From an uncultured bacterium (GTDB lineage: Bacteria; Armatimonadota; HRBIN16): DNA of 64,000 bases. How positions within the stretch are numbered: the stretch's first letter is position 1; each line of letters begins with the position of its first letter. Both the position numbers and the translations under genes were made by a program. The notes beneath the pieces were generated by a model. The model was given only the letters and a program-made list of their open reading frames with translations. It was not told the DNA's origin and did not search any database. Positions 29,320-62,625 of the stretch are shown piece after piece. The DNA is taken from the NCBI GenBank assembly GCA_964519405.1, contig CAZFLA010000001.1:29956-93955 (forward strand). The letters run 5' to 3'.

Positions 29320-30015
29320 TTACACTGTTATTGTTATGCCAGAGGCTAGGATGGGCCTGTGATCTGAGGCAGGGCTTTCCATCACTCGGATGGCTTCAGC
29401 TTTAACGTCTTCAGTCGCAAGTATATAGTCTATGCGATGGGTGGGGGTATCGGCTGGGAACGTAAACTCTTCCGATCCAAGTTCGGTTGCCATGTCGCAT
29501 AATCCAGATTTCTTGATCAGTGTTTTTACCGCTTGCTTATCTGATGTTTCGTTGAAATCACCGCAGATGACTTTAGGCCCTGCTACCGCATTCATGATGC
29601 CTGAAATGAACGTGGCTTGGTTTACTCGTTCGGCAGAGCCAAGGCCGAGGTGTGTACAGAAAACACTGATAACTCCACCCTCCGATGCAACCTGAGCGTG
29701 AATGAGCCCTCGCTGTTCGTCCTCACTGGGAAGCAGATAGGTGTTGATCTTTGTAATCGGCAGTTTTGACAACAGCGCTATTCCGTAGTTGTAGTGAGCA
29801 AGGGGCAATACACCATGAAACAGTGTATTCATGCTTAGCGCTTTAGACAGCAGTGTTGGCTGATCACCAAATCCATGTCCTGGCTCCCATTGTTCCACCT
29901 CTTGTAGGCAGATAATGTCTGCATTCCACCGAAGCAGCTCTCCTGCGACACGATCAAGTGAACGGAAGTTGTCGATACCGCGTCCTGCACGAATGTTATA
30001 GGTTAGAATATTCAT
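29320..30015 (-). CDS. Endonuclease/exonuclease/phosphatase (EEP) family protein
   Basis: N-terminus MNILTYNIRAGRG...ADIICLQEV and a C-terminal SDHRP motif. Confidence 0.75.
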   Translation of the reverse strand: MNILTYNIRAGRGIDNFRSLDRVAGELLRWNADIICLQEVEQWEPGHGFGDQPTLLSKALSMNTLFHGVLPLAHYNYGIALLSKLPITKINTYLLPSEDEQRGLIHAQVASEGGVISVFCTHLGLGSAERVNQATFISGIMNAVAGPKVICGDFNETSDKQAVKTLIKKSGLCDMATELGSEEFTFPADTPTHRIDYILATEDVKAEAIRVMESPASDHRPILASGITITV

Positions 30016-31295
30016 TTGTTGTTGCCAATCACCTTGTTAGTATCTGCTGTCTGAATAGCGATGTTGCGAAATTGGACGTCTTGAACGCTGTTACCCACTA
30101 GGAACCGATCTGATTTCGTGCAGGTGACATTGATATTCTCAATGAGCACATTACGGAAATCAATCTGTTTGTATCCCTGGATGGTGCCTGGGTTATCACA
30201 CTCACCAGTGAAATTGCGAATCACGATGTTGCGGAAGTGCGAATATCCTTTATCTATCGGTAGAGCTGCCTTCGCGAAGTCCGCTTCCCAGTGCTCGTTC
30301 TGACCAAATGGGATCTCGCATGAGATTAACCGGGCGACATTCTTGATATGGAAGTTCTCAACGATGATGTTTTCCGCACCGCCGCCGCGCCCAAGCGCGG
30401 TTTTGAACCTGACGACAGGGTTGTAGTATCCGTATTTGGGGTCGGTATCGGTAAGCCCATCAACTGTGCAGTTCGTGGCATGAACATTGCGGATCCATCC
30501 GGATATCTCGCTGCCGCAGTCGATAACTCCATGCCCAGAACCGAAACGACAGTTCCGGATGATTACATTTTCTGTGGGGCGGTTTGCTTGGATACCTAGA
30601 ATATCCCGTCCTGATTTCAACGAGATGCCGTCGTCGGACACCGAAATATAACACCCTTCGATCAATACGTCGCTGGATGAGTCCACATCGATACCGTCCG
30701 AGCTAGGGGCCGCAACTGGGCCAATAGGTGCGGTTATCGTGAGGTTTCGCACCACGGCATGGCTGCAGTAAAGAAGGTGCAGGTTCCAGAATGAAGAATC
30801 TTTGAGGTGCAGTCCATCTATGTTGATATTGGAGCCGTTGCATACGCTGATCAGCTTAGGGTAGTTCGCCCAATCCGCCGGTTTGTCCTTAGCCTTTTGA
30901 TACTTCCAAAACTCCTGCCACCATTTCAGCCCGCTTCCATCGAGCGTGCCTTTACCGTAGATATGCACATCGGTGAGGCCCTTATCTTTATATGTGCCCG
31001 CATTGACAAGTGCAGCCGGACCTTTTAGCTCGCTGCCAGCCCACAGATTGGTCACCACCGCAAAGTCCTGACGGTTTTGCGATGCCTTCAATACTGCGCC
31101 TTCTTGTAGCCAAAGCTGAACGGATTGCTTCAAAAAGAGTGATCCCGATATGAATGTACCGGCAGGGATGACAACCACACCGCCGCCTTTACCAGCACAG
31201 ACATCAATAGCCTTCTGTATTGCCTTGGTGTTCAGTGTGTCAGCGTTAGCACGAGCACCATAATCCGTTATTTTATACTCAGTCGGGGTTTTCAT
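30012..31295 (-). CDS. Glycoside hydrolase family 28 (polygalacturonase-like, right-handed beta-helix)
   Basis: SDGIDV / DDGISLKSG / GSGHG motifs typical of GH28. ATGA overlap with the EEP gene. Confidence 0.8.
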   Translation of the reverse strand: MKTPTEYKITDYGARANADTLNTKAIQKAIDVCAGKGGGVVVIPAGTFISGSLFLKQSVQLWLQEGAVLKASQNRQDFAVVTNLWAGSELKGPAALVNAGTYKDKGLTDVHIYGKGTLDGSGLKWWQEFWKYQKAKDKPADWANYPKLISVCNGSNINIDGLHLKDSSFWNLHLLYCSHAVVRNLTITAPIGPVAAPSSDGIDVDSSSDVLIEGCYISVSDDGISLKSGRDILGIQANRPTENVIIRNCRFGSGHGVIDCGSEISGWIRNVHATNCTVDGLTDTDPKYGYYNPVVRFKTALGRGGGAENIIVENFHIKNVARLISCEIPFGQNEHWEADFAKAALPIDKGYSHFRNIVIRNFTGECDNPGTIQGYKQIDFRNVLIENINVTCTKSDRFLVGNSVQDVQFRNIAIQTADTNKVIGNNK

Positions 31296-31445
31296 GATGG
31301 CTCCTATACCTATGAGACAAATCCTACTGCTTTGATTACTGGTTTTATTATGCGCCTAAATTCCTGTGTGATACCTTGTGTGACACGGAAATGTGGAATA
31401 CAATATGGTAGATTAATCGATTAATTCGCATCTGAGGTTTTACAT

Positions 31446-33494
31446 ATGCAGAACTCCGATATGCCGTCACTTCCGTTTAGCAACGTCTCTGTTCCACAGC
31501 CATTGGCTCAAGCCGTGATCGATTGGGTGAAGTCAGCCTTTATAGCCACTGACACCGCGCAGCAGAGCGGCCAAATACTATTAAAGCCCACCGAACTACC
31601 GTTTAGTTTTATATATAATGGACATCCGGTTCATGAGCTGATATCAAGTTGGACGCACAAATCAACTTGTGAGCAGGTCGGCGAGCTCATGACGATCACC
31701 GCAGAATGGCAAGATCCTGACACGGCGCTTTGCGTAGTTGCCGATGTCAAGGTGTTTACCAAATACGCTGCTGTGGATTGGGTGCTGCATATTGAGAACC
31801 GCGGTGATGCTGATTCCCCGCTGATGGAAAACATCCAAACTGTCGATATTTCCTTGAAGACCGACAGCCGTGAAGCGACACCTGTGCTTCATCAGCTTCA
31901 TGGTGACTCGTGCGGGGGAATGAGCTTTGCTCCGTTCGATACGGATTTCTTTTGGCCTGGTCAAACATTCTCATTAGCGCCAAGTGGTGGTCGCCCCTCG
32001 AATGCTACAGCATTTCCGTTCTTTAACTTCGAATACGAAGGTCAGGGGATCATCACTGCGATAGGGTGGTCTGGTCAGTGGGCGGCGATTTTCCGACGTT
32101 CTGATGATAAACTCCAAACCACATTCAAGGCTGGTATGGAGTTAACACATTTAATACTGCACGCCGGTGAGAAGATCCGCACTCCGCGCATACTCATGAT
32201 GCCATGGGCGGCTGCTCGTGCTGAGGCACACAACAACTTCCGAAAGCTTTTGCTGGAGCATTACCAGCCCAAGCCAAACGGTCACTTAATAAACATGCCT
32301 GTTGTTTTGCAAACTTTCGATTTATACCATAACTTCACCACTGACCACGTTGATTTCCCAGGATGGGCAACCGAAGCTGGGCAGCTGGATGCCGTGGAGG
32401 CGGCTCACAAGCTGGGATGCGATACATACTGGTTTGATGCAGGTTGGTTTGTGGGTGACTTTCCGGCAGGTGCAGGCAACTGGTTCTGCAAACCGAAGGA
32501 GTTTCCTAACGGGTTAAAGCCTGTCAGCGATCGCTGTCATGAGCTTGGTATGAAGTTCGTGCTTTGGTTTGAACCCAACAGAGTGGCTCCCAACACTCAG
32601 ATTGCTAACGAGCACTCCGAGTGGCTGCTGGGCAGCGCTGAAGCAGATCGTCTGTATAACCTTGGTGATCCCGCGGCGCAGCGTTGGATGACGGATATGC
32701 TGTCCGCACGCATATCGGAATTTGGTGTTGATGTCTACAGAGAAGACTACAATATCGATCCGTTATCATTCTGGCGTATGAATGATACCGCTGACCGGCA
32801 AGGAATGACCGAGATCCGGTTTGTGGAAGGACATTACACGATGTGGGATGAGCTGCTAGAACGACACCCCGGCTTGTGGATAGACAACTGCGCAAGCGGT
32901 GGACGCAGAATTGACCTCGAAACATATTCACGCTCTGTGCCACTATGGCGCAGCGATACGGGTTGTTTTGCCGGACACCCAGAATGGAACCAACTGCAGT
33001 CCGCGGCGTTAAGCCAGTATTTGCCGCTGCATACTGCATGCGGCTGGCAGTCCGATGCCTATACACTGCGGAGCTCCGCAACGTCCGGCGTGATTGTGCA
33101 GCTGCCGTATCACGATATGGATTTTGATTATGAGTATGCCCGAAAAGCCATCGCTGAAGCGGACAGCTACAGGAAATACTGGTATGGTGACTTCTATAAC
33201 CTTACTGGAGTAACATCTAATATTGATGATATGATCGCCTATCAGTTCTTCAGAAAAGACTTGAATGCTGGGGTGGCGTATGTCTATCGAAGGCAACTAT
33301 GCTGCTATGCTGGCATCACACTATGTCTTCAGGGCTTAGATGAGGCGGCTATGTATCAGGTGACGTTTGTCGATGATGACCGCCAGGAATGTGCTCAGTC
33401 ACTGATCAGCGGAGCCGACTTAATGAACAAAGGTCTTGATGTGAAACTGCCGAAGAAAAGCAGTATGGTGATCCACTTATCGCAGGTGTCTTAG
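31446..33494 (+). CDS. GH36-family alpha-galactosidase-like enzyme
   Basis: WFDAGWF, YREDYNID, DNCASGGRRIDLE (the GH36 C-x-SGGG-R motif). 682 aa. Confidence 0.7.
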   Translation: MQNSDMPSLPFSNVSVPQPLAQAVIDWVKSAFIATDTAQQSGQILLKPTELPFSFIYNGHPVHELISSWTHKSTCEQVGELMTITAEWQDPDTALCVVADVKVFTKYAAVDWVLHIENRGDADSPLMENIQTVDISLKTDSREATPVLHQLHGDSCGGMSFAPFDTDFFWPGQTFSLAPSGGRPSNATAFPFFNFEYEGQGIITAIGWSGQWAAIFRRSDDKLQTTFKAGMELTHLILHAGEKIRTPRILMMPWAAARAEAHNNFRKLLLEHYQPKPNGHLINMPVVLQTFDLYHNFTTDHVDFPGWATEAGQLDAVEAAHKLGCDTYWFDAGWFVGDFPAGAGNWFCKPKEFPNGLKPVSDRCHELGMKFVLWFEPNRVAPNTQIANEHSEWLLGSAEADRLYNLGDPAAQRWMTDMLSARISEFGVDVYREDYNIDPLSFWRMNDTADRQGMTEIRFVEGHYTMWDELLERHPGLWIDNCASGGRRIDLETYSRSVPLWRSDTGCFAGHPEWNQLQSAALSQYLPLHTACGWQSDAYTLRSSATSGVIVQLPYHDMDFDYEYARKAIAEADSYRKYWYGDFYNLTGVTSNIDDMIAYQFFRKDLNAGVAYVYRRQLCCYAGITLCLQGLDEAAMYQVTFVDDDRQECAQSLISGADLMNKGLDVKLPKKSSMVIHLSQVS

Positions 33495-33507
33495 GTAATA
33501 TTGGCAG

Positions 33508-33540
33508 CCCTCCTTCCGGTGACAATCACCGGAAGGAGGG
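33508..33540. terminator. Bidirectional terminator, perfect 15-bp stem
   Basis: CCCTCCTTCCGGTGA-caa-TCACCGGAAGGAGGG between convergent genes. Confidence 0.7.
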
Positions 33541-33559
33541 TTGCTCTAGATGGTATGTG

Positions 33560-35881
33560 TTAGTCTTTCTGCTCTATCGAGTAGATGCACACCGACTTTA
33601 ACTGCACGGTGCCTGCGCCTGGCAACTGTATGCGCAGGGCGTGAATACGGTCTGCCGCTTTCCATGGCATGGTGAAGCAGAGTTTTGTTTGAGTGTTGGG
33701 GAACCTCAACTGACGCCACACCATATTGTCATAACTGCTGCCATCAACACTCCAGCGCAGCGGGAACTGCTTGATGGGGTTTTCAGAACGCATGTTTATT
33801 TCCACGAAGTAGAGTTTGTTCTTGTCAACCACTACATTCGACACAGGCAGATCGATATATGGGTCGTCACCGGTTGTGCGGAACTCGGCAACACCCTTAT
33901 TGCTCTTCGTATATTCCATGTTGTGCAGCATATTGGGTGACGCTTTCAGATTGCTGATGTCTTGCGCCCATAGTCGCTGAGATGCTGAATGTGTTTTGCC
34001 GTTAATCAGCTTACAGGTTAGATCATTTAGTGGCGCCATATCTTTAGCTAACCATGCCGACTCGGAGGCGTTCATGCTGCCAATGATCTTACTGGCTTTG
34101 TTGATCGCGGCTTGCCGTGATGTAGCCTGATCGGTGCTGCTGGCTTTCAGAACACATTCGGCAAGATCATCCCATGTCGACAGCGGCAGCGGCTCAACCA
34201 GCGTCGCCATGATCTCCTTGCGCGGCATGACCTTGAGCTTCCCATCTTTCTTAGCCTGTTCGACGATGGCCAATAGGTCTGATATCTTCGCACTGCAGTA
34301 TCCCGAACCACCATATACGCAGCCCTCACCGGAATACCATATCTTCACTTCGTCGCCAGATATCACAGCCGAACAAGCCCTTACACCAAGATCGCCCCAT
34401 GTGCCCCAGTCCGACCATGTCACGATGGGGTCGCTGTGGTTGAACGGCGGCTCTGTGGTGTTGATGTCGTCGTATTTCACCCAGTTGATGCCGTCAAGTG
34501 AAAAAGCCCAGCCAAGTCTTTTTACGCCAGCTACAAATTCGTCATTGGTGATGTGACCGTGATAGAAGCAATGGTAACTGGCACCCGATTTACCTTGGTA
34601 AATACGGGTTTGAGTTTCATTGTCACCGAGCTTGAGCATAGCTGCTGCCGATAGCCATCCGCTGTCCCAGTCGCCTGGCTCACCCTGAGTGATGACCGGG
34701 TTCAACGTAGACTTCTTCCAGTGGACACAGTCTTTGCTTTCGGCATAACCGAACTCGTTGCGGTAACCGCGTGATGGGTCGTTAATGCCGGTGAACCACA
34801 TCTTCCAGATATTACCGTCTTTGATGAACGAGTGGTCGCCGATGCAGATATCATCCCACGCGCCAAAGGGGCCTTGGTAGAGCAGGGGATTGTCTGGCTC
34901 TGGGGTCCAATGAATACCATCATTACTGCGATGCATACCCATGCCATCCCACCAGTTGGCATTGCAGGTAGATCCCGCGGGATGCCACATGATGTATTCG
35001 TCACCGTATTTCAATGTGTCGGCATCGGCTTCGTTGAAGTCACCCCATTGGCCTTTTGCTCCCAGAGGTTTCACTGCGCCGGTGCCTGCGGGTTGTGTCC
35101 AGGTGATGCCATCTTTTGATTCCGCATACCCTTGACCCGCGCCGTTGGAATACCACATTTTGTATGTGTCACCATCGAGTATGACGGTTGGTGAGTAAGC
35201 GTCGATGTTCAACGGGTTGTGCGGATATACCGTAAATGGCGACTTCGAGCGAGTTGCTGTCCGCACAATGACATCGCTGAAGGAACCCGTGGCTGCGGCT
35301 GCATAGAACCCAACCATGCCGCAGGGGTGCTCTGCGATCTTCTTTTCTACCACATGTCCGATGTATTTTTCGTCAACATAGCAGTATATGCCGGCACGGT
35401 CGGTTATGACCTTCATCCGGTAAGGGTGGTCAAACTTCGCAGTGAATGGGAATGTGCCTAAGGTTGTGTACTGCAGATTTCGAACCGTCTCGATGGTCAG
35501 CTTTTTATTCGGAGCGTTGAAGCGCACCATGATAAAGTTGTCGTGAGTGTCACCGCGCACGGTCAATCCCAACCCCGCCCACGATTCCCCATTGTTGCCG
35601 GTCATGTTGATCGTGGCTTCGTAAATGCAGTCGATCCACTCGTGACCAGGAACAAATGCTCGCGCCCGTATGGCGTGAAGGTCGGTGGATGTGATGCTGT
35701 TCTGCCCTTCCTGCCAACTGCCCTCATTAATGATGAGGTTCTTGTAGACCGATCGTCCAGATATGCTGTCTGGGGTGGTATCAATGCGTGTGAGTTGATC
35801 GGTGCCCGCCGATGCCGATGTTGTTAATGCCATAATGATTACCCCTACTAAACTCTTGAAGAGAGATGCGGTTTGATTCAT
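33560..35881 (-). CDS. Secreted glycoside-hydrolase-like protein: concanavalin/LamG-like domain plus a five-bladed beta-propeller (GH43/GH32/GH130-like) plus a C-terminal beta-sandwich
   Basis: Signal peptide. Repeated blade motifs YKMWYS, YIMWH, WKMWFTG, KIWYSG. Family assignment is uncertain. Confidence 0.5.
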   Translation of the reverse strand: MNQTASLFKSLVGVIIMALTTSASAGTDQLTRIDTTPDSISGRSVYKNLIINEGSWQEGQNSITSTDLHAIRARAFVPGHEWIDCIYEATINMTGNNGESWAGLGLTVRGDTHDNFIMVRFNAPNKKLTIETVRNLQYTTLGTFPFTAKFDHPYRMKVITDRAGIYCYVDEKYIGHVVEKKIAEHPCGMVGFYAAAATGSFSDVIVRTATRSKSPFTVYPHNPLNIDAYSPTVILDGDTYKMWYSNGAGQGYAESKDGITWTQPAGTGAVKPLGAKGQWGDFNEADADTLKYGDEYIMWHPAGSTCNANWWDGMGMHRSNDGIHWTPEPDNPLLYQGPFGAWDDICIGDHSFIKDGNIWKMWFTGINDPSRGYRNEFGYAESKDCVHWKKSTLNPVITQGEPGDWDSGWLSAAAMLKLGDNETQTRIYQGKSGASYHCFYHGHITNDEFVAGVKRLGWAFSLDGINWVKYDDINTTEPPFNHSDPIVTWSDWGTWGDLGVRACSAVISGDEVKIWYSGEGCVYGGSGYCSAKISDLLAIVEQAKKDGKLKVMPRKEIMATLVEPLPLSTWDDLAECVLKASSTDQATSRQAAINKASKIIGSMNASESAWLAKDMAPLNDLTCKLINGKTHSASQRLWAQDISNLKASPNMLHNMEYTKSNKGVAEFRTTGDDPYIDLPVSNVVVDKNKLYFVEINMRSENPIKQFPLRWSVDGSSYDNMVWRQLRFPNTQTKLCFTMPWKAADRIHALRIQLPGAGTVQLKSVCIYSIEQKD

Positions 35882-35960: not shown

Positions 35961-36872
35961 TTGGCATTTCTTGTTATTATAGTGATGAAAAAGCGCCATT
36001 CTAGGTTGATTATGGCTCAGATGCTTGATCGACATGACTATTCTTATTCTGGTGGGCTCATCATGACGGAGATATCCAGTATCCTTCAACTGCCCAAAGT
36101 GGTGAATGCACGCGAAAGCGTGGGCGGTATACTCTCAGCGTATATCGATAGGGAGTATGTGCTGCAGTATTGTGTGAATGGTGAGGGAAGTTTTCGACTT
36201 CGCAACAACTTGTTTCACATCACCCCTGGCACCACATTCCTCATGCCGCCCCAGTTGCCGCATGCGCTGCATTTTATGAGGGAGGCCAGCGATTACCGCT
36301 ATATTGTGGTGCACTTTGCATTACCCGAAGGATCAACGCTGTTAAGGCACTTTCCACAGGTCGTTTCGTTGAGTAAAGCCGATGCAGCGGTTGTAGAGCG
36401 GTGTATGCGCGATATCGTCAAAGAGTATCACTCGGGCCAATCAGGCGCAGGATTAGTCATGGCAGGGTTGTTGGTTGAGGCGTTGGGGTTGTTTTGGCGC
36501 AATCGAGCGGAAGACACACCCAGTGATGTGGTGATTTCAACAGTATGGCGTGACATTGAGCGTGTCATCGGCTGGATGCACCAACAATATAATGAACCAC
36601 TCACGATATCTATGATGTCGGAGGCTGCGGAACTATCACCATCATATTTCTGTAAGGCTTTTAAGGAATTCACGGGCTGCAGCCCGCACCGGTATTTGAA
36701 CAATATAAGAGTAGAAAAAGCGGCGCACATTCTAAGCGAACGTGAGCTAACCTGCAGTGAGGTGGCTCAGCTTGTGGGGTATGCCGACATGGCAACGTTC
36801 AGCCGAGTGTTCCGCAGGATTATGTCCATATCACCCTCGCAATGGGTTCAGCAGTATTACCCAACTACTTGA
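35961..36872 (+). CDS. AraC-family transcriptional regulator. The start may be an internal Met.
   Basis: C-terminal double HTH (...SPSYFCKAFKEFTGCSPHRYLNNIRVEKAAHIL...) and an N-terminal cupin-like sensor. Confidence 0.8.
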   Translation: MAFLVIIVMKKRHSRLIMAQMLDRHDYSYSGGLIMTEISSILQLPKVVNARESVGGILSAYIDREYVLQYCVNGEGSFRLRNNLFHITPGTTFLMPPQLPHALHFMREASDYRYIVVHFALPEGSTLLRHFPQVVSLSKADAAVVERCMRDIVKEYHSGQSGAGLVMAGLLVEALGLFWRNRAEDTPSDVVISTVWRDIERVIGWMHQQYNEPLTISMMSEAAELSPSYFCKAFKEFTGCSPHRYLNNIRVEKAAHILSERELTCSEVAQLVGYADMATFSRVFRRIMSISPSQWVQQYYPTT

Positions 36873-36951
36873 TGAATGTAACTTGCTTGTAATAAAGAGG
36901 AACAGAATACCTCGGTGTTGAACCTTCTGGTAACATAGATTCCTTACATGG

Positions 36952-40104: not shown

Positions 40105-40114
40105 CCTAACGCAG

Positions 40115-40154
40115 AACACACAGCGATCACTGCGTGATGTGATCGCTGTGTGTT
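40115..40154. terminator. Bidirectional terminator, perfect 16-bp stem, abutting the GH127 stop codon
   Basis: AACACACAGCGATCAC-tgcgtgat-GTGATCGCTGTGTGTT. Confidence 0.65.
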
Positions 40155-43001: not shown

Positions 43002-43005
43002 GGCA

Positions 43006-43030
43006 GTAGGCTGGCTTAATACCAGCCTAC
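43006..43030. terminator. Hairpin or bidirectional terminator between araC and the GH3 gene
   Basis: GTAGGCTGG-cttaata-CCAGCCTAC. Confidence 0.5.
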
Positions 43031-43038
43031 TTGCAGAG

Positions 43039-49986: not shown

Positions 49987-50114
49987 CAGAACCTCTACAT
50001 GTGTTGGTATAATCAGCGACATCCGCTTCTTTGACAGCGGCCGCAACTTAAATGATACAGACTAAAGCATAGTTGTGGAAAATTACGAAGCTGCGGTGAT
50101 ATATCGTTGGTCAT

Positions 50115-53703: not shown

Positions 53704-54800
53704 GATCTGTGTTCTCCGATTGTTGCGTCGATGTATTTAAGGAAGGCGATGAGTTGGTCGACCAGTTCATCATCTATTGCACGCCACCGATGTTGAAATC
53801 CAGGGAACAGCGGGCAGATGTTGTGAGTGGTGTGGTTGAACTGCACAGGGACATAGGCTTTGGGTCTCATGCCCGTTTTGTCGGTTAGTATGCAGTAGTT
53901 ACAATCGTCGCACTTTTTCGATTGCTTCACGACATACTGCAGGACACAGGGTGATGCAGTATCAATGCCCGCAAGAAGTTTAGCGAAATAGGGAATGCGT
54001 AATCCAATATGCAGCTGATTACGGCGGATTTCCTCCCAACCAAACTCAATCCCGCTGTGGGTGCGTTCGGCCCACGCTGACTTCACCGCGGAATCGATGG
54101 AGCCGTGCTCCTTAACAAAATCCAATGAGATTTTGCCGTCACGGTTATCTATCTGTGTGTAGTATGACTTTGTGAGGTAGTCAAGCAGCTTGTCATATGG
54201 GCCATTGTTGCCGACAAGTGATCTGAAGATATCGATGGCGTAAGGGGATGTATTGTCGAACACCCCTCGAGAAAACTGAAGGATGGGATACCTATCCGAC
54301 TGCGCCGACAACTTCGCGAGATACATCAGTGCTAGCGCTGTGTCGTGATCGATGTTCAGATGGGTGTTTGACGCAGTCGCGTGGCACGGTATGCCGAGGT
54401 CGTTCAAGTGTTTAGTAGTTGATGTTTTGATGGGGTGTATCTGCTTAGGCAACTTGATGGTGTCGCCAAATAACTCGCCGTCAAGGCAGAAATGATAGAG
54501 GTGCCCAATGAACTCGTCAACCTTTTTGTTGATGCCTCGCATCTTCGGTGCCAGCATCGGTTTGTTCTTTTGCGGCTCGTAGTTATCAAAGCTGTCATCA
54601 GACTCTATCTTGAGACCAAGCAGCTGCGGGCTGTCATACAAGCGTTTGTAAATGTTGTATATGAATTGGTGTGCTTCTCGTTGATGATCCTCACTCACAT
54701 GGCCGTTCTTATGTGGATAGAATGGGGCATATGTGGCGAGATAATAATAAATCATTCGCTGCGGCAGGTTAGCAAAACTAGAGCCTATTTTTGAATCCAT
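53700..54800 (-). CDS. Hypothetical protein with a C-terminal cysteine cluster, second gene of the unknown operon
   Basis: 366 aa. GAGGA RBS. C-terminal ...C-x11-C-x2-C-x2-C...C-P arrangement. No known domain. Confidence 0.45.
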   Translation of the reverse strand: MDSKIGSSFANLPQRMIYYYLATYAPFYPHKNGHVSEDHQREAHQFIYNIYKRLYDSPQLLGLKIESDDSFDNYEPQKNKPMLAPKMRGINKKVDEFIGHLYHFCLDGELFGDTIKLPKQIHPIKTSTTKHLNDLGIPCHATASNTHLNIDHDTALALMYLAKLSAQSDRYPILQFSRGVFDNTSPYAIDIFRSLVGNNGPYDKLLDYLTKSYYTQIDNRDGKISLDFVKEHGSIDSAVKSAWAERTHSGIEFGWEEIRRNQLHIGLRIPYFAKLLAGIDTASPCVLQYVVKQSKKCDDCNYCILTDKTGMRPKAYVPVQFNHTTHNICPLFPGFQHRWRAIDDELVDQLIAFLKYIDATIGEHRS

Positions 54801-54834
54801 ATTAAATCCTCATGCAAGTTGAACATACAAAAGA

Positions 54835-55536
54835 CTATATGTCATCTGGGAGAGCGGCATCATCGACCCACTCATAGTTGAAAGCCATCTTGTTGGTCTG
54901 TTTCTCAATTAACCAACTCAATATCTTGAGTTCCTCACTGTGATCTACCACAGCCGACGGAATTACGCCCGTGGCGATGTGCCGTGACTGCTCTTTTATG
55001 CGCTTCTTAAGCGCGGTGCCGTAACATTTTGCCATCACGATGAGGTGTGTGGCATCGTGTTTGGCGGCATAGAAGGAGATTGTACCGTGTGGCTTTTCAA
55101 ACTGCGGCCACATGGCTCTATCTAGTTGAGCTGGCACACACGAGCTCTCAGCCAACACTGCGAGGCAACGGTCGGCATCGTCGACTTTCGCTATACAGGC
55201 ATACTGGATAAAATCGCAGTTGATGCCATTATATGCGGGGAATTCGCTCATCACTTCCTGGCCAAACAATAGCTGATACTGAGCGTATAATACGTCAGCG
55301 AACTCCGAGTATTCACACGCCAGCTTGCGGTAGTCCACATGTGTATATAGAAACCAGATGCGGCCCAGCTGATTGTATTCGATGCTGAACATGTGAATCT
55401 TGGTGATGGCTGAATCTGGGTATTCCACATAATTGTCACCAATTGCGATATTCGAGGTCTTCAACCTCACTATGTTAGCGATCCGATGGTATGTGCTCTC
55501 GGAAAGATAATGAAGCAACCGTAGCTTGATGATCAT
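54835..55536 (-). CDS. Hypothetical protein, first gene of the unknown operon. Start moved to MIIKLRLL, which has a GGAGA RBS.
   Basis: About 233 aa. No recognisable domain. Confidence 0.4.
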   Translation of the reverse strand: MIIKLRLLHYLSESTYHRIANIVRLKTSNIAIGDNYVEYPDSAITKIHMFSIEYNQLGRIWFLYTHVDYRKLACEYSEFADVLYAQYQLLFGQEVMSEFPAYNGINCDFIQYACIAKVDDADRCLAVLAESSCVPAQLDRAMWPQFEKPHGTISFYAAKHDATHLIVMAKCYGTALKKRIKEQSRHIATGVIPSAVVDHSEELKILSWLIEKQTNKMAFNYEWVDDAALPDDI

Positions 55537-55625
55537 TTGCAATCTCCACATGAAGCAATGCTGTCATTCAAATATCGGGAAGGTATTACCCTAAGATTTA
55601 CAGAAAACACTCTTAAGCGAATGCC

Positions 55626-55691: not shown

Positions 55692-55809
55692 ATGGTTTAG
55701 GCTAAAGATATCTTCAGCTGATGCAGTTACAGTGATGAGTAGTATATTGGTGCAGCACAACCTCATCTGCGATACACTTTAATCTAGTAAGACGACGAGA
55801 TGAATAGGA

Positions 55810-57015
55810 ATGAATCCCATGACATATGATTGGATAGATGGAGCTGTCACCGCACCTAAGGGGTTTTCGGCTTGTGGTGTGAGGTGCGGCCTCAAAAAAG
55901 CAGGACCAGACTTGGCCCTGATCTATAGTGAAATGCCAGACACGGTTGTTGCTGGCGTATTTACGCAGAACCAGGCGTGTGCCGCATCGGTTCGGTATAG
56001 CCGCATGGTGGTTGATGGCGGCAAAGCGCAGGCCATCGTGGCGAATGCAGGGAATGCTAATGCGCTGACTGGTGAACAAGGATTTGTCGCCAATGCGGCC
56101 ATGGCGCAGAGAGCAGCCGAGCTTCTTGGCATTAACCCGCGTGAAGTCATCACTGCGAGCACCGGTGTTACCGGTCAGCAGCTTCAGCTTGACCTCATCA
56201 AGAACGGTCTTGATGCCGCAGTGCCGGCACTCAGTGAAACCGGCGGAAATGATGCCGCTGAGGCCATCCGAACTACCGACACATATCCCAAGCGTGAAGC
56301 CATTGTCATGCACTTGCCTGAAGGCGATGTGCGGATTGGCGCCATATGCAAGGGTTCTGGTATGATTGCCCCCAATATGGCAACTATGCTGTGTTTCATC
56401 ACCACCGACGCTGTGATATCTGCCTCACGGCTTCAGCAGTGCCTGCGCGATGCGGTGGAAAGAAGTTTCAACTGCGTAACGGTTGACGCCGACACAAGCA
56501 CGAATGACTCGTTGGTGGTGTTAGCTAATGGTGCCAGCGGAGTAGATATCAACCGCTATATGAACGAGTTTCAACTGGTGTTGGAAGCGCTGTGTGTAAA
56601 ACTTGCCCGACAGATGGCGGGTGATGGAGAAGGCGCAACCAAGCTGGTGGAGATTACCATGCTTGGAGCTCGGACATATGCCGAAGCACGATCAATTGGT
56701 AAAACCATCGGCGAATCGATGTTGGTCAAAACGGCGCTGTTTGGTAATGATCCTAACTGGGGACGCATCCTTGCAGCAGCAGGACGAAGCGGTATCGAGA
56801 TTGATATCGATAGAGTGGCCATATCTATCGCTGGAACACAGGTCTGTGCGAATGGTCAGCCAGTCGTGTTTGATGCGCCGAGTGTGAGCGAATCGATGAA
56901 AGGCAAAGAATTGCCCATCGTAGTTGATCTTGGACTGGGTACTGAGAGCTGCACGATATGGACATGCGACTTGAGCTACGACTACGTGCGCATAAACGCT
57001 GAGTATCACACCTAG
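55810..57015 (+). CDS. argJ: Bifunctional glutamate N-acetyltransferase / amino-acid acetyltransferase ArgJ
   Basis: ATMLCFITTDA self-cleavage site region (Thr nucleophile). C-terminus TCDLSYDYVRINAEY. Confidence 0.9.
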   Translation: MNPMTYDWIDGAVTAPKGFSACGVRCGLKKAGPDLALIYSEMPDTVVAGVFTQNQACAASVRYSRMVVDGGKAQAIVANAGNANALTGEQGFVANAAMAQRAAELLGINPREVITASTGVTGQQLQLDLIKNGLDAAVPALSETGGNDAAEAIRTTDTYPKREAIVMHLPEGDVRIGAICKGSGMIAPNMATMLCFITTDAVISASRLQQCLRDAVERSFNCVTVDADTSTNDSLVVLANGASGVDINRYMNEFQLVLEALCVKLARQMAGDGEGATKLVEITMLGARTYAEARSIGKTIGESMLVKTALFGNDPNWGRILAAAGRSGIEIDIDRVAISIAGTQVCANGQPVVFDAPSVSESMKGKELPIVVDLGLGTESCTIWTCDLSYDYVRINAEYHT

Positions 57016-57066
57016 TATAGTAATTGTAAGTAAAAGCTGAACGACACTCATAGGAGGTTGTTATCA

Positions 57067-57981
57067 ATGAAGGTTACCAAGGTAGAATACGCCGGTTGGA
57101 AAAACTGCCTGCGTATGGCGAACGATGAAGTTGAGTTGATTGTGACAACGGACGTTGGCCCGCGCGTGATCCATTTCGGATTCATCGGCGGTGATAATGA
57201 GTTCAAGTTATTCGATGATACTAAGGGCAAATCAGGCGGAGATAGCTGGAACAGTTATGGCGGTCACCGATTGTGGCATGCTCCTGAGATCAACCCACGC
57301 ACATATTTCCCTGACAATACTCCTGTCGAGTGGAAGGTAGAGGACAATGTGCTGCACGTAATGCAGCCAGTCGAGCCTACTACTGGTATCCGAAAAGAGA
57401 TGCTGATCTCGCTGGATGATAAGCAGAATAAGGTGGTCATCGGACATCTGCTGACAAATACCAATATGTGGGCTATACAGTTTGCACCTTGGGCGATTTC
57501 GGTGATGGCACCTGGTGGCACCTGCATCTGGCCTCAAGAAGATTACGCTCCACAGCCAACATCGCTGCTGCCTGCCCGTCCATTGGTTCTGTGGACATAT
57601 ACCGATCTGAGCGATTCTCGATGGACGCTTGGCGCCAAGTTTATTAGGCTGCATCAAGACGTGAAGCTTAAAGAACCGCAGAAAGCTGGTATCCTCAACA
57701 CCAAGAGTTGGGCAGCGTATGCCAATGGCGGACGCCTGTTTGTTAAGAGCTTCCCATATGTGGCTGATGAGACATATCCAGATATGGGCTGTAACTGCGA
57801 AGCCTTTACTAACGACGAAATGCTTGAAGTGGAAAGTGTTGGTGGATTGGTTACCGTTCAGCCAGGACAGTCGGAGTTCCACCCAGAGACATGGCTGCTG
57901 TGCAAGGGCTTCACACTTCCCGAAAGCGATGACGATCTAGAAAAAGCGATCGCTCCGATTGTTAAGTCACTGCAAGATTAA
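57067..57981 (+). CDS. Hypothetical protein (possibly galactose-mutarotase-like fold). Start at MKVTKVEY, which has an AGGAGG RBS.
   Basis: Beta-rich, about 305 aa. Its context in the sugar-utilisation cluster is suggestive only. Confidence 0.45.
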   Translation: MKVTKVEYAGWKNCLRMANDEVELIVTTDVGPRVIHFGFIGGDNEFKLFDDTKGKSGGDSWNSYGGHRLWHAPEINPRTYFPDNTPVEWKVEDNVLHVMQPVEPTTGIRKEMLISLDDKQNKVVIGHLLTNTNMWAIQFAPWAISVMAPGGTCIWPQEDYAPQPTSLLPARPLVLWTYTDLSDSRWTLGAKFIRLHQDVKLKEPQKAGILNTKSWAAYANGGRLFVKSFPYVADETYPDMGCNCEAFTNDEMLEVESVGGLVTVQPGQSEFHPETWLLCKGFTLPESDDDLEKAIAPIVKSLQD

Positions 57982-58001: not shown

Positions 58002-58026
58002 AGGCATCCTTCGGGATGCCTTTTTA
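58002..58026 (+). terminator. Rho-independent terminator
   Basis: AGGCATCC-ttcg-GGATGCCT followed by TTTTT. Confidence 0.7.
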
Positions 58027-58057: not shown

Positions 58058-59983
58058 ATGGATTCATGGATGATACAGATATCGTGTGATGGCAAGCTGA
58101 TGCTGACCCACTCAAACGGAACGAAACTGTCGGGGTTGCTTCCGAGTGTGATTATTGACGGCTGTGTATACCAGCCAGACGACAAGTGGACATATGATAT
58201 TCAGAACCAAAGTGTGATGTATACACTTGATGGTATGGTCAAGATAAAAGTCGATGTGAATACTGCTGACGGTAATTGGGTGGAGCTGAATACATCGCTG
58301 TGTAACCTCAGCAATCGGGATCTGAAGATCGACGCTGTTACTGTGACTTCTGGCTCAATTGAGGCGAATGTCCGGTGGATATTACAAAACAACATCGATA
58401 TGTGCGGTGAATGTGCGTTGGTGCCGATCCGTGAACATAATACCAGCAACTCTGTGATGGGATTTACAGATGCTGAAGGTGACCATGCCGTAGTTGCTGG
58501 CTTCACCAACCTGGGTGATGCATTCTGTGATGTCGCTTCGCAAGGATGTGACGGCAAGCTGGTAGATATTAAGGCGACAGTGAACCGAGAGGGTGTGGAA
58601 CTGCCGTCTGACGGCACGCTGCAGGCAGGCACTTTGCGAATTGGAGCGGCCCAGTCGCTGCGATCGCTGATGGCGGAGTATGCCGTGTATGTCGGTCAGG
58701 AAATGGGCGCGAGGGTGCCTAAAAACATCATGACTGGCTGGTGTAGTTGGTATTACTACTGCGGTTCGGAGAACGAAGAAGAGATCCTCGCAAATGCCAA
58801 ACTGCTGAGTGAAGCACCCTTTGCTGATGATCTGCAGGTTGTACAGATTGATGATGGCTGGACGTATCCCTCTGCCGAGATCGGCAGAAACTGGGGCGAC
58901 TGGTATGCAGGCTATAAGTTCCCAAATGGAATGAAGCATACGGTTGATTCGCTGAAGGCGTTAGGGTTGAAAGCCGGATTATGGTTAGCTCCGTTCAGCG
59001 TGATGACGACAAGCAATTTTTATAAAGAACACCCTGAGCTGCTGGTGCAATGCCCTGATAAAGACGAACCCATACTTCAATGGGGTTGCTGCGGACTAGA
59101 CCTAACTCATCCGCAGGCGCTGGAACACCTACGGCAAACATTCATCCGGGTGTTCGATGTGTGGGGTTTCGATTACATCAAAATCGACTTCTTACTGCAT
59201 GGCATCATGCCAGGACGACGACATGATCCCACGCAAACCACTGCCCAAGCATTTCGAAATGCCATGAAGATCATCCGCGAGGTTGCTGCAGAGCGGTTCA
59301 TCTTGAATTGCGGCAGCCCGATGGGGCCATCGATAGGTTATGTAGATGCCATGCGCATTGGCTATGATGTGTCGAGCAGATGGTTCCTGCCGATGAACCT
59401 AGAGAGCTGGCCGAACGGCAACTGCGCTATAAAGCCGGCTGCTGTCGCGACCACATGGCGGCACTGGATGCACAACGCATGGTGGCAAAATGATCCAGAC
59501 TGCGTGGTGGTGCGTGCTCATGGCGCTCCAGGTGAAATCGCCTCGTGGACCAAAGAAGGCGTATTTGTTTCTGATCCGCCGTATGGGCTGAATTACGAGG
59601 AAGCTGCTGGATGGCTGAGGCTCGTGTGGTTTTCTGGCGGTTTAGTAATGCTAAGTGAAAATCTTGCTGATATGGAGCAGGACAGATATCAACTACTGGA
59701 TAAACTCTTCCCACTAAACAACCGCCCAACTGGTTGGGTGGATTACTATCCGTGCTTGGATGTGGCTGTTTTCAAAACGCTGGATGACGCCTCCCTCATG
59801 GTGGGGATATTCAATGTAGGCGACTTGCCAGTGCAGCTTAACGTACCTGCCGATAAACTAGGGTTACAGGGTGCTTGGAGCTTTAAGGAATGGCTGACAG
59901 GTGAAGTGATATCCGGCAGCGGAGATCAAGTTGAGTTCCCAGAGCTTCCGGCACATGGCGGTCGTATCTGGATAATGCAATAG
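58058..59983 (+). CDS. GH36/GH27-clan alpha-galactosidase-like enzyme
   Basis: VVQIDDGWTYP...GDWYAGYKFPNGMK...GLWLAPFSV...WGFDYIKIDF motifs of melibiase-type enzymes. Confidence 0.7.
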   Translation: MDSWMIQISCDGKLMLTHSNGTKLSGLLPSVIIDGCVYQPDDKWTYDIQNQSVMYTLDGMVKIKVDVNTADGNWVELNTSLCNLSNRDLKIDAVTVTSGSIEANVRWILQNNIDMCGECALVPIREHNTSNSVMGFTDAEGDHAVVAGFTNLGDAFCDVASQGCDGKLVDIKATVNREGVELPSDGTLQAGTLRIGAAQSLRSLMAEYAVYVGQEMGARVPKNIMTGWCSWYYYCGSENEEEILANAKLLSEAPFADDLQVVQIDDGWTYPSAEIGRNWGDWYAGYKFPNGMKHTVDSLKALGLKAGLWLAPFSVMTTSNFYKEHPELLVQCPDKDEPILQWGCCGLDLTHPQALEHLRQTFIRVFDVWGFDYIKIDFLLHGIMPGRRHDPTQTTAQAFRNAMKIIREVAAERFILNCGSPMGPSIGYVDAMRIGYDVSSRWFLPMNLESWPNGNCAIKPAAVATTWRHWMHNAWWQNDPDCVVVRAHGAPGEIASWTKEGVFVSDPPYGLNYEEAAGWLRLVWFSGGLVMLSENLADMEQDRYQLLDKLFPLNNRPTGWVDYYPCLDVAVFKTLDDASLMVGIFNVGDLPVQLNVPADKLGLQGAWSFKEWLTGEVISGSGDQVEFPELPAHGGRIWIMQ

Positions 59984-60009: not shown

Positions 60010-62625
60010 ATGGAAAAACACACATATCATGTTATTTCGCACACCCATTGGGATAGGGAGTGGTACCTAACATATCAGCAGTTTCGGCTGCGTCTGGTTG
60101 ACTTAGTCGACCATCTGCTGCAGATACTCGATACGGATCCCAATTTCCGGTTCTTTAACTTTGATGGTCAAACCATTGTGTTGGAGGACTATCTAGCCAT
60201 TCGCCCTCAGAACGAAAAGAAGCTGAGGGATTACATTAAGCAGGGACGAATACTAGTCGGCCCTTGGTATCAACTTAATGACGAAAACTTGGTTAGTGGG
60301 GAATCCACGGTGCGCAGCTTGCTGATTGGGCATCGGATCGCTCAGGACTTCGGTGGGGTCATGAAAGTGGGATATCTGCCGGATCAGTTCGGCAATATCT
60401 CACAAATGCCTCAGATCTTCCGTGGGTTTGGCATCGACAATGCTATCTTCGGTCGCGGCAGGCAGTTGACAGAGCCGGGTGATAAGATGGAGGCGATATG
60501 GGTTGCCCCTGATGGCTCTGAGGTTCTCAGCTCACTCATGGCTTTTTGGTATAACAACGCTCAGCGGCTTCCCAATGCCACTGGCGACGCGATCGCATAT
60601 ATCGAAAACTTGGGACGAGTGATGTCACCTGTGGCTGCCACACCCCATCTGCTGCTGATGAACGGTGTGGACCACCTTGAGGTTCAGCCGGATTTAGGTG
60701 ACATTATCTCACGAATCTCATCGCGTATCCCCAGCGGTGAGATAGTCCACACCACCATGCCAGCCTATATAGAAGCCGCGAAGAGCTATGTGGCCGCAAA
60801 TAATGTGGAACTGCAGAGAGTCGAGGGTGAGCTGCGTCAAGACCGTCATGGCAGTGTGTTGGCGGGCACGCTTTCTACCCGTATGTACATCAAACAGGCA
60901 AATAATCAATCGGAGACATGGCTTGAGCGCTACGCCGAACCCTTAAGCTCTTTTGCCGCATGTGTCGGAGGTGAATACCATCACGATGCTCTACGGTATG
61001 CCTGGAAGCTGCTGATGCAGAACCATCCGCATGATTCGATATGCGGCTGTAGTATCGATCAGGTGCATGAGGAGATGATGCCTCGGTTTGCACAAGTCGA
61101 TCAGATTGCTGACGAGTTGTCGCAGCGAAGCATGAAGTGCATCTCGAACAAGATACACACAGAAACTGAAAGTTTGGTTGTCTTTAATACATTGGCCTGG
61201 ACGCGTACAGACAAAATAACAGCCACTATTGAGTTTGTGCTGAGCGAGCCAACCCGCGGTATCCCTGAAGTGGATAAGCAGCGCGATATCGCTGCGTTTA
61301 ATTTGTATGACGAGAATGGCCAACATGTGCCGTTCAAAGTCACCAAAAACCATGTCATCGCGAAGCAGATTATCGATCCGTTTGAACTGCCAATGGCTGT
61401 GATGGTTCGAAGTGTTGAGCTGGAGTTCATTGCCGTCGATGTGCCGTCTTGTGGATACAAGAGCTACGAAATCCATCCGGCTGCCATGTGGCCCATATAT
61501 GAAAAATCGGACATGGCGCTCAACAGTTTACGATGTTCCATCACCAACGGACTCATATCTATCGGTGTTGCTGATGGCGGCTTGACGGTATCTGGTGAAG
61601 ATTTCTATCTGGAAGGGCTTGGCGTGATTGAGGACTGCGGGGAAGTAGGTGACGAATACAACCATGTTAGCCCGCTGAACGATCATACGATTATGGATTG
61701 GGCTGATACCCAGATATCGATCATCGACAATAGTCCGGTATCCATGAGTCTCGTTCGCGAAAATGTGCATAAGCTGCCTAAGGAGTCAAACTCTCATAAC
61801 CGCTCCAGCGAAACAGTTGACTGCGCTGTCAAGACTGTCTACACATTAGCGGCGGGCGCCAAGCGAGTCGATGTGAAGACCACCATCGATAACAAAGCAA
61901 AAGATCACCGATTGCGAGCGGTGTTTACTTCAGACAGCAACAGTGATGTCGCCTGCGCAGAGATGCCTTATGACGTAGTGGCACGGCCTACTCGTGTGCC
62001 CGCAGATTGGATTGGTGCATCGAACTTTTTCCCGCAGCGTCATTGGGTGGATGTTAGTGATGGCGAACAGGGCTTAACCATCATCAACAAGGGGCTGCCT
62101 GAATATGAGGTGTATGGTCATGATTGTAAGGCCATCGCCTTAACGCTGCTGCGATGTGTTGGTAAATTGAGTGGTACAGGTGATACGCCGACGGCGATCC
62201 CAACTCCTGGAGCACAATGTATCGGCACGCACAGCTTCGAGTATGCTGTCTATCCTCACAATGGAACATGGCAGCAGGATCTGGTGTGGCAGCAAGCCCA
62301 TCAGCATAATGTGCCGCTAACGTGTATACAGACATCCGCCCACGAGGGAAACTTACCAGCCAGTATGAGCTTCGTATCGGTTGATAACCCTGGACTTGTC
62401 GTGACCGCTATCAAACAAGCTGAAGACAGCAACGCGACGATCGTGCGAATGTACTGCATTCTGGACGAACCGGTGTGCGATGCCAAAGTCACTCTGCGAG
62501 GCGCGAAAAGTGCATCTCTAGTGAACCTCAATGAAGATGTCATAAGCGCGCTTGATGTCGACACTGATGGCAGTGTGGTGATATCGGCAACTGCTAAACA
62601 AATCGTTAGTATCGCGTTTATGTAG
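60010..62625 (+). CDS. GH38 alpha-mannosidase (mannosylglycerate-hydrolase-like)
   Basis: N-terminus HVISHTHWDREW...GPWYQLNDENL plus GH38 central and C-terminal domains. 871 aa. Confidence 0.88.
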   Translation: MEKHTYHVISHTHWDREWYLTYQQFRLRLVDLVDHLLQILDTDPNFRFFNFDGQTIVLEDYLAIRPQNEKKLRDYIKQGRILVGPWYQLNDENLVSGESTVRSLLIGHRIAQDFGGVMKVGYLPDQFGNISQMPQIFRGFGIDNAIFGRGRQLTEPGDKMEAIWVAPDGSEVLSSLMAFWYNNAQRLPNATGDAIAYIENLGRVMSPVAATPHLLLMNGVDHLEVQPDLGDIISRISSRIPSGEIVHTTMPAYIEAAKSYVAANNVELQRVEGELRQDRHGSVLAGTLSTRMYIKQANNQSETWLERYAEPLSSFAACVGGEYHHDALRYAWKLLMQNHPHDSICGCSIDQVHEEMMPRFAQVDQIADELSQRSMKCISNKIHTETESLVVFNTLAWTRTDKITATIEFVLSEPTRGIPEVDKQRDIAAFNLYDENGQHVPFKVTKNHVIAKQIIDPFELPMAVMVRSVELEFIAVDVPSCGYKSYEIHPAAMWPIYEKSDMALNSLRCSITNGLISIGVADGGLTVSGEDFYLEGLGVIEDCGEVGDEYNHVSPLNDHTIMDWADTQISIIDNSPVSMSLVRENVHKLPKESNSHNRSSETVDCAVKTVYTLAAGAKRVDVKTTIDNKAKDHRLRAVFTSDSNSDVACAEMPYDVVARPTRVPADWIGASNFFPQRHWVDVSDGEQGLTIINKGLPEYEVYGHDCKAIALTLLRCVGKLSGTGDTPTAIPTPGAQCIGTHSFEYAVYPHNGTWQQDLVWQQAHQHNVPLTCIQTSAHEGNLPASMSFVSVDNPGLVVTAIKQAEDSNATIVRMYCILDEPVCDAKVTLRGAKSASLVNLNEDVISALDVDTDGSVVISATAKQIVSIAFM

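Follow-up and report, generated by a model that had tools for sequence, protein, structure and literature searches.

Gene content of the region

Does a dense run of glycosidase genes constitute one locus devoted to one substrate? The question is raised by positions 29320-62625 of a 64,000-nt stretch of contig CAZFLA010000001.1 from an uncultured bacterium, the whole stretch being referred to as the window. A preliminary description of the region had read it as a single locus resembling a polysaccharide utilization locus (PUL) and directed at plant glycoproteins (extensin and arabinogalactan-protein, AGP) or pectic side chains. Our analysis speaks against a single locus. The region is probably a patchwork, made of four or more modules that are inherited and transcribed separately, rather than one substrate-dedicated unit, because synteny splits it into independent blocks, the housekeeping gene argJ interrupts it, and hairpins and convergent gene pairs would delimit at least eight transcription units.

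We scanned all open reading frames (ORFs) of at least 150 aa within 29320-63714 by Pfam, NCBIfam and PDB searches together with structure prediction, and read families, folds, signal peptides, gene order and synteny directly from the results. The high density of carbohydrate-active enzymes (CAZymes) noted earlier was borne out. Glycoside hydrolase (GH) or GH-like genes account for 10 of the 21 genes in the region, whereas the left 29 kb of the window has 1 among 27 (Fisher p = 4e-4). The sole GH of the left half is an isolated GH9 + CelD_N cellulase-like gene (875 aa; 10166-12793, plus strand). The enzymes named in the preliminary description were also largely recovered. Pfam placed GH28, GH3-PA14 and GH38 where they had been predicted, and two GH36-like alpha-galactosidases matched Melibiase at 99.9 and 55.2 bits (cut-off 27). 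Two GH127/146-type enzymes, one cytoplasmic and the other secreted with a discoidin (F5/8C) domain, were supported by Pfam, PDB and signal peptides. The enzyme described as GH2/106-like proved to be GH106-like, the secreted papain-like protease and both AraC regulators were found, and the 1050-aa NPCBM protein turned out to carry a DUF6259 domain too. Beyond the earlier list, the range holds an EEP phosphoesterase, three unknown ORFs, argJ and a TTE1925-family mutarotase. As had been noted, no SusC/SusD-type protein was detected by Pfam among the scanned window ORFs of at least 150 aa, so that the region is not a PUL of the Bacteroidota type.

The region as a probable mosaic of modules

Two parts of the region recur in other genomes. 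Block A is found in two related contigs, L169 (OW818647.1) and L170, which carry genes for a GNAT protein, EEP (L169 only), GH36a (70% identity in both), the propeller protein (67%), the divergent AraC regulator (63%) and DUF6259 (52%). The GH28 gene is missing from the corresponding syntenic block of both contigs. Block C is kept in L081, an 82%-identical relative, in the order of the three unknown ORFs (238, 366, and 326 aa), GH106-like, C1 protease, and GH127-like. In L082 and L084 (about 50-66% identity), only the protease and GH127-like genes stay near each other in the same orientation, L082 also retaining the GH106-like gene, and the flanks are unrelated. The argJ gene (55810-57015, plus strand; PF01960, 4.9e-144) stands inside the CAZyme run, and none of 80 argJ loci of other genomes shares neighbours with the window. 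A look-up for sequences identical to the argJ product returned none.

The intergenic sequence has a GC-rich hairpin at each convergent junction, namely at 33495-33559 between the GH36a and propeller genes, at 40105-40152, and at 43002-43038. Terminator-like hairpins follow the mutarotase gene (58002-58021) and the GH38 gene (62653-62684). Strand changes and hairpins together predict at least eight transcription units. Scans for sigma-70 promoters and terminators scored at or below chance and defined no operon. We also inspected the hexamer TATCAC, which is present in the 120 nt preceding 7 of 21 right-half genes and 3 of 25 left-half genes. The minus-strand sites at 31368, 42068, 45772, 48134, 50096, and 52679 precede the GH28, GH127, GH3, GH127-like, C1 and GH106-like genes, respectively, and the plus-strand site at 57004 precedes the mutarotase gene. 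This enrichment is too weak for a shared operator, which was rejected; the hexamer may represent a -10-like element or the half-site of an operator.

Recent local duplication is an unlikely source of the density because the paralog pairs are very divergent: identity is 24% between the GH127 proteins and 23% between the AraC proteins, and GH36a and GH36b can hardly be aligned.

Several points weigh against the patchwork. The GH density is far above that of the rest of the window, and with two AraC regulators within the region some co-regulation across modules is conceivable. Synteny could also have been lost because a working regulon was rearranged, without the modules being functionally independent. 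The relatives at hand are distant, with protein identities of about 50-70%, save one 8-kb contig of a closer relative. Matches to characterised enzymes all fall under the NCBIfam equivalog cut-offs, BglX being a near-miss, and a strong match to such an enzyme (PDB 4qjy) is confined to the cytoplasmic GH127. Among the window ORFs, no canonical sugar transporter was found.

Module A

Module A (29.3-40.1 kb) would pair a secreted CBM66-propeller enzyme with a divergent AraC gene preceding that of a cytoplasmic DUF6259 protein, alongside a distant GH36, an EEP and an inserted GH28. The EEP (endonuclease/exonuclease/phosphatase-family) gene (29320-30015, minus strand; PF03372, 3.6e-24) has a 4-nt overlap with the GH28 stop, and its 56%-identical ortholog adjoins the GH36a ortholog in L169. 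The cytoplasmic GH28 (30012-31295, minus strand; PF00295, 4.6e-29; PDB 5olp, 1e-46) is exo-(rhamno)galacturonidase-like, with the rhamnogalacturonidase BT4153 as its best NCBIfam match (2.4e-79, under the cut-off). GH36a (31446-33494, plus strand) is a distant GH36-like cytoplasmic protein matching Melibiase (1.9e-28), GH36C, and PDB 3mi6 (2.4e-24). AraC-family regulator 1 (35961-36872, plus strand; HTH_18, HTH_AraC, AraC_binding) lies upstream of DUF6259, diverges from the propeller gene, and has orthologs of 62-63% identity at the same position in L169 and L170.

The secreted 773-aa propeller protein (33560-35881, minus strand), which has no match in Pfam, is composed of a CBM66-like β-sandwich, a five-bladed β-propeller, a helical linker, and a C-terminal β-sandwich. 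Its AF2 model, built from a 53-homolog alignment, has a predicted local distance difference test score (pLDDT) of 89 and a predicted template modelling score (pTM) of 0.85. The fold is that of the GH43/GH130/GH137 superfamily, with GH130 and an N-acetylgalactosamine (GalNAc) deacetylase at least as close as GH43. The propeller that the preliminary description had called GH43-like is hence retained as a fold, but not as a member of GH43, since Pfam gives no GH43 match even at E <= 5. Assignment to GH137 was rejected: the NCBIfam match to BT0996 is 1.9e-4, identity to 5mt2 is 17-18%, and GH130, GH43 and the deacetylase score equally well or better. The propeller family is spread in Planctomycetota, Hydrogenedentota and Kiritimatiellia, and is unannotated.

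The 1050-aa protein (36952-40104, plus strand) combines DUF6259 (PF19773, 7.1e-19) with a CBM51-like NPCBM domain (2.1e-6). It has no signal peptide, and its start lies only 6 codons past the upstream stop. A signal-like N-terminus is present in 38 of 54 DUF6259 family members and absent in the window protein and its closest ortholog. The AF2 model from a 54-homolog alignment has a pLDDT of 91.6 and a pTM of 0.89. Foldseek matched it to GH101 EngBF (7e-25), GH31, the 3,6-anhydro-D-galactosidase ZgGH129 (TM 0.65), GH129 NagBb (0.65-0.68), FpGalactosaminidase, and GH36 alpha-galactosidases. The modelled architecture corresponds to the N-sandwich/TIM-barrel of clan GH-D and relatives. Two invariant residues are candidates for catalysis, namely E440 and D399, the latter placed by the model where a barrel strand ends. 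DUF6259 gave no PDB sequence match and no GH-family sequence match above threshold. Literature searches on DUF6259 and TTE1925 returned nothing, and a search on PF18560 returned unrelated work only. An uncharacterised DUF6259 family with the modelled GH101/GH129/GH36-like fold would be a modest novelty.

We then inspected the gene neighbours of DUF6259. An S1 sulfatase gene lies directly upstream in L169 (7200-8579), L170 (5365-6744) and the Planctomycetes contig L172 (6595-7998), the gap in L172 being 2 nt; the pairing was not seen in L171 or L173. In L169 and L170, the sulfatase gene sits between AraC and DUF6259, and a gene for a DUF6785/DUF6784 membrane protein directly follows DUF6259. 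The AraC1-DUF6259 spacer in the window is 79 nt (36873-36951) and holds no sulfatase gene. The window also encodes a DUF6785/DUF6784 polytopic membrane protein (20874-22823, plus strand; PF20581, 1.7e-141), which is 34% identical to the one directly downstream of DUF6259 in L169 and L170 and has about 7-8 hydrophobic segments after merging overlaps. Its gene is outside the region, 14 kb from the DUF6259 gene. This protein may be a transporter partner of the DUF6259 block.

Modules B, C, and D

Module B would consist of a cytoplasmic GH127 β-L-arabinofuranosidase and its own divergent AraC regulator. The 632-aa GH127 (40153-42051, minus strand), a probable β-L-arabinofuranosidase, lacks a signal peptide. 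It belongs to the family by all three GH127 Pfam domains (PF07944, 7e-99; PF20736; PF20737) and by the motifs ETC at 328 and CC at 396. Its near match in PDB (4qjy, 1.8e-188) is a characterised Geobacillus β-L-arabinofuranosidase. AraC-family regulator 2 (42180-43001, plus strand; HTH_18, AraC_binding/Cupin_2) is divergent from GH127.

Module C would comprise the same-strand genes for the GH106-like protein, the secreted C1 protease, the secreted GH127-like protein with a CBM32-like domain, and the secreted GH3. The minus-strand run is transcribed from the three unknown ORFs through GH106-like, C1 and GH127-like to GH3. The three co-oriented ORFs (52723-55551; 326, 366, and 238 aa) encode cytoplasmic proteins, keep their order only in the closest relative L081, and have no Pfam or NCBIfam match even at lax thresholds. 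The 366-aa protein has a Cys-rich C-terminal segment and is part of a family comprising some 226 sequence clusters; 10 members of the family were scanned without an informative Pfam match. The cytoplasmic GH106-like protein (50115-52646, minus strand) is a probable α-L-rhamnosidase, based on PF17132 (5.5e-22; 78.5 bits, cut-off 29) and GH106 structures in PDB (about 1e-15). Its match to the NCBIfam BT4145 model (1.7e-38; 132 versus an equivalog cut-off of 1300) does not fix specificity.

The papain-family (C1) protease (48181-50046, minus strand; PF00112, 9e-25) also has a lectin-like domain (PF18560, 1.7e-49) and C-terminal dockerin-like repeats. A hydrophobic signal-like N-terminus follows an internal Met. 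The catalytic set of peptidase C1 is intact, consisting of Q99, C106 (GDCWAF), H242, and N275. The C-terminus (about 48232-48348, minus strand) contains a duplicated dockerin-like calcium motif, DxNxDxxVNxxD (DANGDNKVNLFD / DLNGDGLVNLFD), which occurs in no other window ORF, and no cohesin-like partner was seen. Orthologs of the protease adjoin GH106/GH127-like genes in three related genomes or contigs (L081, L082, and L084).

The secreted 775-aa protein (45806-48133, minus strand) has a signal peptide, a GH127/GH146-like catalytic part, and a C-terminal F5/8C (CBM32-like) domain assigned by Pfam. Its similarities to GH127 (7e-25) and GH146 (1e-15) structures in PDB are comparable. When aligned to HypBA1, it keeps the GE acid/base as well as ETC (325-327) and CC (395-396). 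Both GH127-type proteins have the Glu-x-Cys and Cys-Cys motifs, which provide zinc binding and the nucleophile in HypBA1. GH127 also includes aceric-acid hydrolase and 3,6-anhydro-D-galactosidase specificities (PMC10850190, PMC5698469). Orthologs of the secreted protein occur at 43-69% identity in 80 metagenome loci, and its commonest neighbours elsewhere are sulfatases (11/82 loci) and the rhamnosidases GH106+F5/8C (11/82) and GH78 (8/82). Proteins of the same GH127-like + F5/8C type with 60-69% identity are found over many JGI/ENA contigs (L085-L164), apparently from peat, lake and rhizosphere, in otherwise unrelated neighbourhoods. The neighbouring secreted GH3 (43039-45726, minus strand) carries inserted PA14 and Fn3-like domains according to Pfam; it scores 638 bits with NCBIfam BglX (cut-off 666), β-xylosidase models following close behind.

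Module D would consist of a GH36 α-galactosidase and a GH38 α-mannosidase, bounded by hairpins and located beside the mutarotase. GH36b (58058-59983, plus strand) is a cytoplasmic TmGalA-type GH36 α-galactosidase (Melibiase, 7.5e-15; PDB 1zy9, TmGalA, 8.5e-47). The cytoplasmic GH38 protein (60010-62625, plus strand) has five GH38 Pfam domains and is α-mannosidase/MngB-like, with an NCBIfam mannosylglycerate hydrolase match of 1.7e-153, under the cut-off. The module looks like generic cytoplasmic finishing of α-galactosides and α-mannosides. The TTE1925-family mutarotase-like protein (57058-57981, plus strand) matches NCBIfam NF052227 at 4.7e-97, under the cut-off, and has no match in the PDB sequence search. 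The plus-strand run argJ-mutarotase-GH36b-GH38 is closed by ALAD (62686-63714). A 199-aa ORF antisense to argJ (55714-56313, minus strand) is most likely spurious because it lies inside the strongly supported argJ frame.

Substrates and alternative readings

Substrates, import and regulation can be inferred from this gene content. Outside the cell, four secreted proteins would act as trimming enzymes on complex glycans or glycoproteins of plant, algal or microbial origin. Transporters whose genes lie elsewhere, with the DUF6785 membrane protein as one candidate, would take up the products, and seven cytoplasmic exo-glycosidases would finish them to the monosaccharides L-arabinose, L-rhamnose, galacturonate, galactose, and mannose. 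Among the possible substrates, fragments of pectic rhamnogalacturonan I (RG-I) and β-L-arabinofuranosides have the best support. Plant-wall scavenging is plausible because the GH28 and GH106-like proteins are nearest to RG-I exo-enzymes and GH127 is near a characterised β-L-arabinofuranosidase. In addition, rhamnosidases rank among the most frequent neighbours of the GH127-like protein elsewhere. BT4145 and BT4153 act successively, alternately stripping rhamnose and galacturonate from RG-I oligosaccharides (PMC8002723). The target proposed in the preliminary description is upheld in part: the GH127 homologue, the RG-I-type best matches and the protease adjacency agree with it, but the marker enzymes of extensin/AGP degradation were not found.

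We regard it as unlikely that the whole 33 kb is one PUL-like extensin/AGP locus, in which β-L-arabinofuranosidases would strip hydroxyproline-arabinosides, α-galactosidases would remove serine-linked galactose, and the protease would cut the bared backbone. β-L-arabinofuranose is present in extensin and AGPs (PMC10850190), and the region does encode two enzymes with intact GH127-type catalytic machinery, three clan-D-type α-galactosidase-like enzymes, and a lectin-bearing C1 protease that is secreted and has its catalytic residues intact. The adjacency of this protease to GH106-like and GH127-like genes, kept in L081, L082, and L084, is compatible with attack on a glycoprotein, proteoglycan or pectic glycan in the window's clade. 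However, the protease was absent from the 80 other loci carrying the GH127-like enzyme (0/80), so a general association of the two outside the window's own clade was rejected, and paralogous C1 proteases of relatives sit among unrelated genes in non-CAZyme contexts. GH121, α-L-arabinofuranosidase, β-1,3/1,6-galactanase, β-glucuronidase and an oligosaccharide ABC importer, which are parts of the Bifidobacterium system (PMC7263609), were not found in any ORF scanned with Pfam and NCBIfam; by these scans the region does not correspond to a system for hydroxyproline-rich glycoproteins (HRGPs). The independent synteny blocks, the interruption by argJ, and the tie of the DUF6259 block to sulfatases also speak against such a locus.

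Block A in particular points away from HRGPs because a sulfatase precedes DUF6259 in relatives and in a Planctomycetes contig. For this block, a sulfated or amino-sugar galactan is at least as likely a target as a plant glycoprotein, given the sulfatase pairing and the structural neighbours acting on α-galactose, α-GalNAc and anhydro-galactose. A broader version of this idea is that an α-linked galactan from algae, microbes or animals, sulfated or containing amino sugars, is the target of part of the region, above all module A and perhaps the GH127-type enzymes too, as in the Zobellia carrageenan system or the Flavonifractor deacetylase + GH36 pair. In its favour, the DUF6259 model matches ZgGH129 (TM 0.65), the α-GalNAc-ases of GH129/GH101, and FpGalactosaminidase. 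The sulfatase lies directly upstream of DUF6259 in L169, L170, and L172; 11 of 82 loci of the GH127-like enzyme have a sulfatase neighbour; and a GH127 can be an anhydro-galactosidase in an AraC-regulated PUL (PMC5698469). The window itself, however, has no sulfatase, and the sulfatases of L169 and L172 are only about 30-35% identical over partial alignments. Planctomycetes and Verrucomicrobia are rich in sulfatases, so that the pairing may be background. For the cytoplasmic GH127, a proven β-L-arabinofuranosidase is a far closer match (1.8e-188), and specificity is not fixed by the fold matches, which extend over the whole of clan GH-D and the propeller superfamilies. The related contigs appear to come mainly from freshwater, peat and soil (judged by contig and sample names only), where carrageenan is not expected. 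Taking both sides together, we consider this broader version improbable.

Clustering without functional meaning, in which unrelated glycosidase genes became adjacent by chance or rearrangement in a CAZyme-rich, non-operonic genome, is very unlikely: Armatimonadota genomes are CAZyme-rich and poorly operon-organised (PMC4959169, PMC11535203), housekeeping singletons are scattered across the window and the GH127-like neighbours mostly differ between loci, but the GH enrichment (p = 4e-4), the two sub-blocks that keep order and orientation at 50-70% protein identity while flanks change, and the AraC genes divergent beside enzyme genes, with the AraC1 arrangement kept in L169 and L170, speak against it.

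Within the patchwork of modules, we make a tentative and rather doubtful proposal that joins two claims. The DUF6259 proteins (about 1050-1100 aa; Armatimonadota, Verrucomicrobiota, and Planctomycetota) might form an undescribed GH family that acts, together with an S1 sulfatase and a DUF6785 importer, on α-linked galactose/GalNAc-type residues of sulfated glycans. The trio of GH106-like protein, dockerin-bearing C1 protease and GH127-like protein might at the same time be a dedicated extracellular glycoprotein-dismantling module of this Armatimonadota lineage.

Comparison with known systems

The HRGP cluster of Bifidobacterium longum consists of GH121 HypBA2, GH127 HypBA1, GH43 HypAA, and an ABC transporter (PMC7263609, PMC10850190). 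The region resembles it in having a cytoplasmic GH127 with Cys/Zn motifs and in the scheme of extracellular trimming followed by intracellular exo-hydrolysis. It differs in lacking GH121, the GH43 α-L-arabinofuranosidase and the ABC transporter, in not being one operon, and in adding a protease, GH106-like, GH28, GH36, GH38, and DUF6259.

In the RG-I PUL of Bacteroides thetaiotaomicron (BT4145-BT4183; PMC8002723), BT4145 and BT4153 are the enzymes that the GH106-like and GH28 proteins, respectively, match best in NCBIfam, and an α-galactosidase takes part there too. Unlike this PUL, the window has no SusC/SusD, lyases, GH105, esterase or β-galactosidases, and the scores are far under the equivalog cut-offs. 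Its GH28 and GH106-like genes are 19 kb apart in different synteny blocks, and their products are cytoplasmic, not periplasmic.

The carrageenan PUL of Zobellia galactanivorans contains three GH127, the GH129-like DagB, S1 sulfatases and the AraC regulator CgrA (PMC5698469). The region shares with it GH127-type enzymes, a GH129-like fold (DUF6259) and AraC regulators, and a sulfatase is present in the DUF6259 operon of relatives. In contrast to Zobellia, the window has neither a sulfatase nor anhydro-galactose catabolic genes, its DUF6259 protein has no detectable sequence similarity to GH129, and its cytoplasmic GH127 is closest to a β-L-arabinofuranosidase. The FpGalNAcDeAc + FpGalNase (GH36) pair of Flavonifractor plautii likewise has a propeller and carbohydrate-binding domains beside a GH36-type enzyme, and both proteins are among the structural matches of their window counterparts, but at the sequence level the resemblance is marginal, with 1.6e-5 over about 140 aa.

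The region is comparable to CAZyme clusters outside Bacteroidota (Gram-positive PULs and other CAZyme gene clusters), which also combine glycosidases with local transcription factors and mix secreted with cytoplasmic enzymes. Its differences from them are the lack of a canonical sugar transporter in the cluster, the interruption by a biosynthetic gene and the independently inherited blocks. It works like such a non-Bacteroidota cluster, an ordinary kind, and is a member of no characterised system. The Bifidobacterium cluster and the B. thetaiotaomicron PUL have just one or two enzyme types each in common with it, and with the Zobellia PUL the common ground is a theme of enzyme folds.

Host and genomic surroundings

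By protein similarity, the host is an Armatimonadota bacterium. Its argJ product shares 63% identity with the one from an Armatimonadota metagenome-assembled genome, the next best matches being Chthonomonadales and Capsulimonadaceae, and homologs of the protease and DUF6259 repeatedly carry Armatimonadota labels. Near-identical fragments (95-100%) were found only in short ENA metagenome contigs. Lone biosynthetic genes stand among unrelated neighbours, namely hisG (7520-8389, beside ruvAB), HPPK (22850-23407), argJ (55810-57015), and ALAD (62686-63714). This matches the non-operonic gene layout documented for the Armatimonadota isolate Chthonomonas calidirosea (PMC4959169). A paper on Fervidibacter mentions neither GH127 and GH106 nor AraC.

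The window holds neither a tRNA nor an Rfam element. The c-di-AMP cyclase gene cdaA and ybbR/cdaR (13032-16412, plus strand) are followed by genes for a GT4 glycosyltransferase and a DUF386 protein, not by glmM. In Firmicutes, glmM usually follows cdaA-cdaR. Upstream of the region lie genes for an AAA_21 (AbiEii-like) ATPase (19428-20729, minus strand), a DUF488 protein (26601-27206, plus strand), and a dual-OB (DuOB) protein (27601-28224, plus strand), all of which may be defence-related.

Implications

CAZyme clusters outside Bacteroidota serve to guess the polymers eaten by uncultured bacteria. In a weakly operonic Armatimonadota bacterium, a dense glycosidase run can be a patchwork, so that a one-substrate reading is unsafe and synteny sub-blocks are the better unit. 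The region provides three enzyme targets, which are DUF6259 with its recurrent sulfatase pairing, the widespread clade of secreted GH127-like proteins with a CBM32-like domain, and the family of CBM66-propeller proteins. All three are frequent in metagenomes from peat, lakes and soil, and none includes a characterised member. The most interesting is the DUF6259 family and, to a lesser degree, the trio of GH106-like protein, protease and GH127-like protein kept within the clade.

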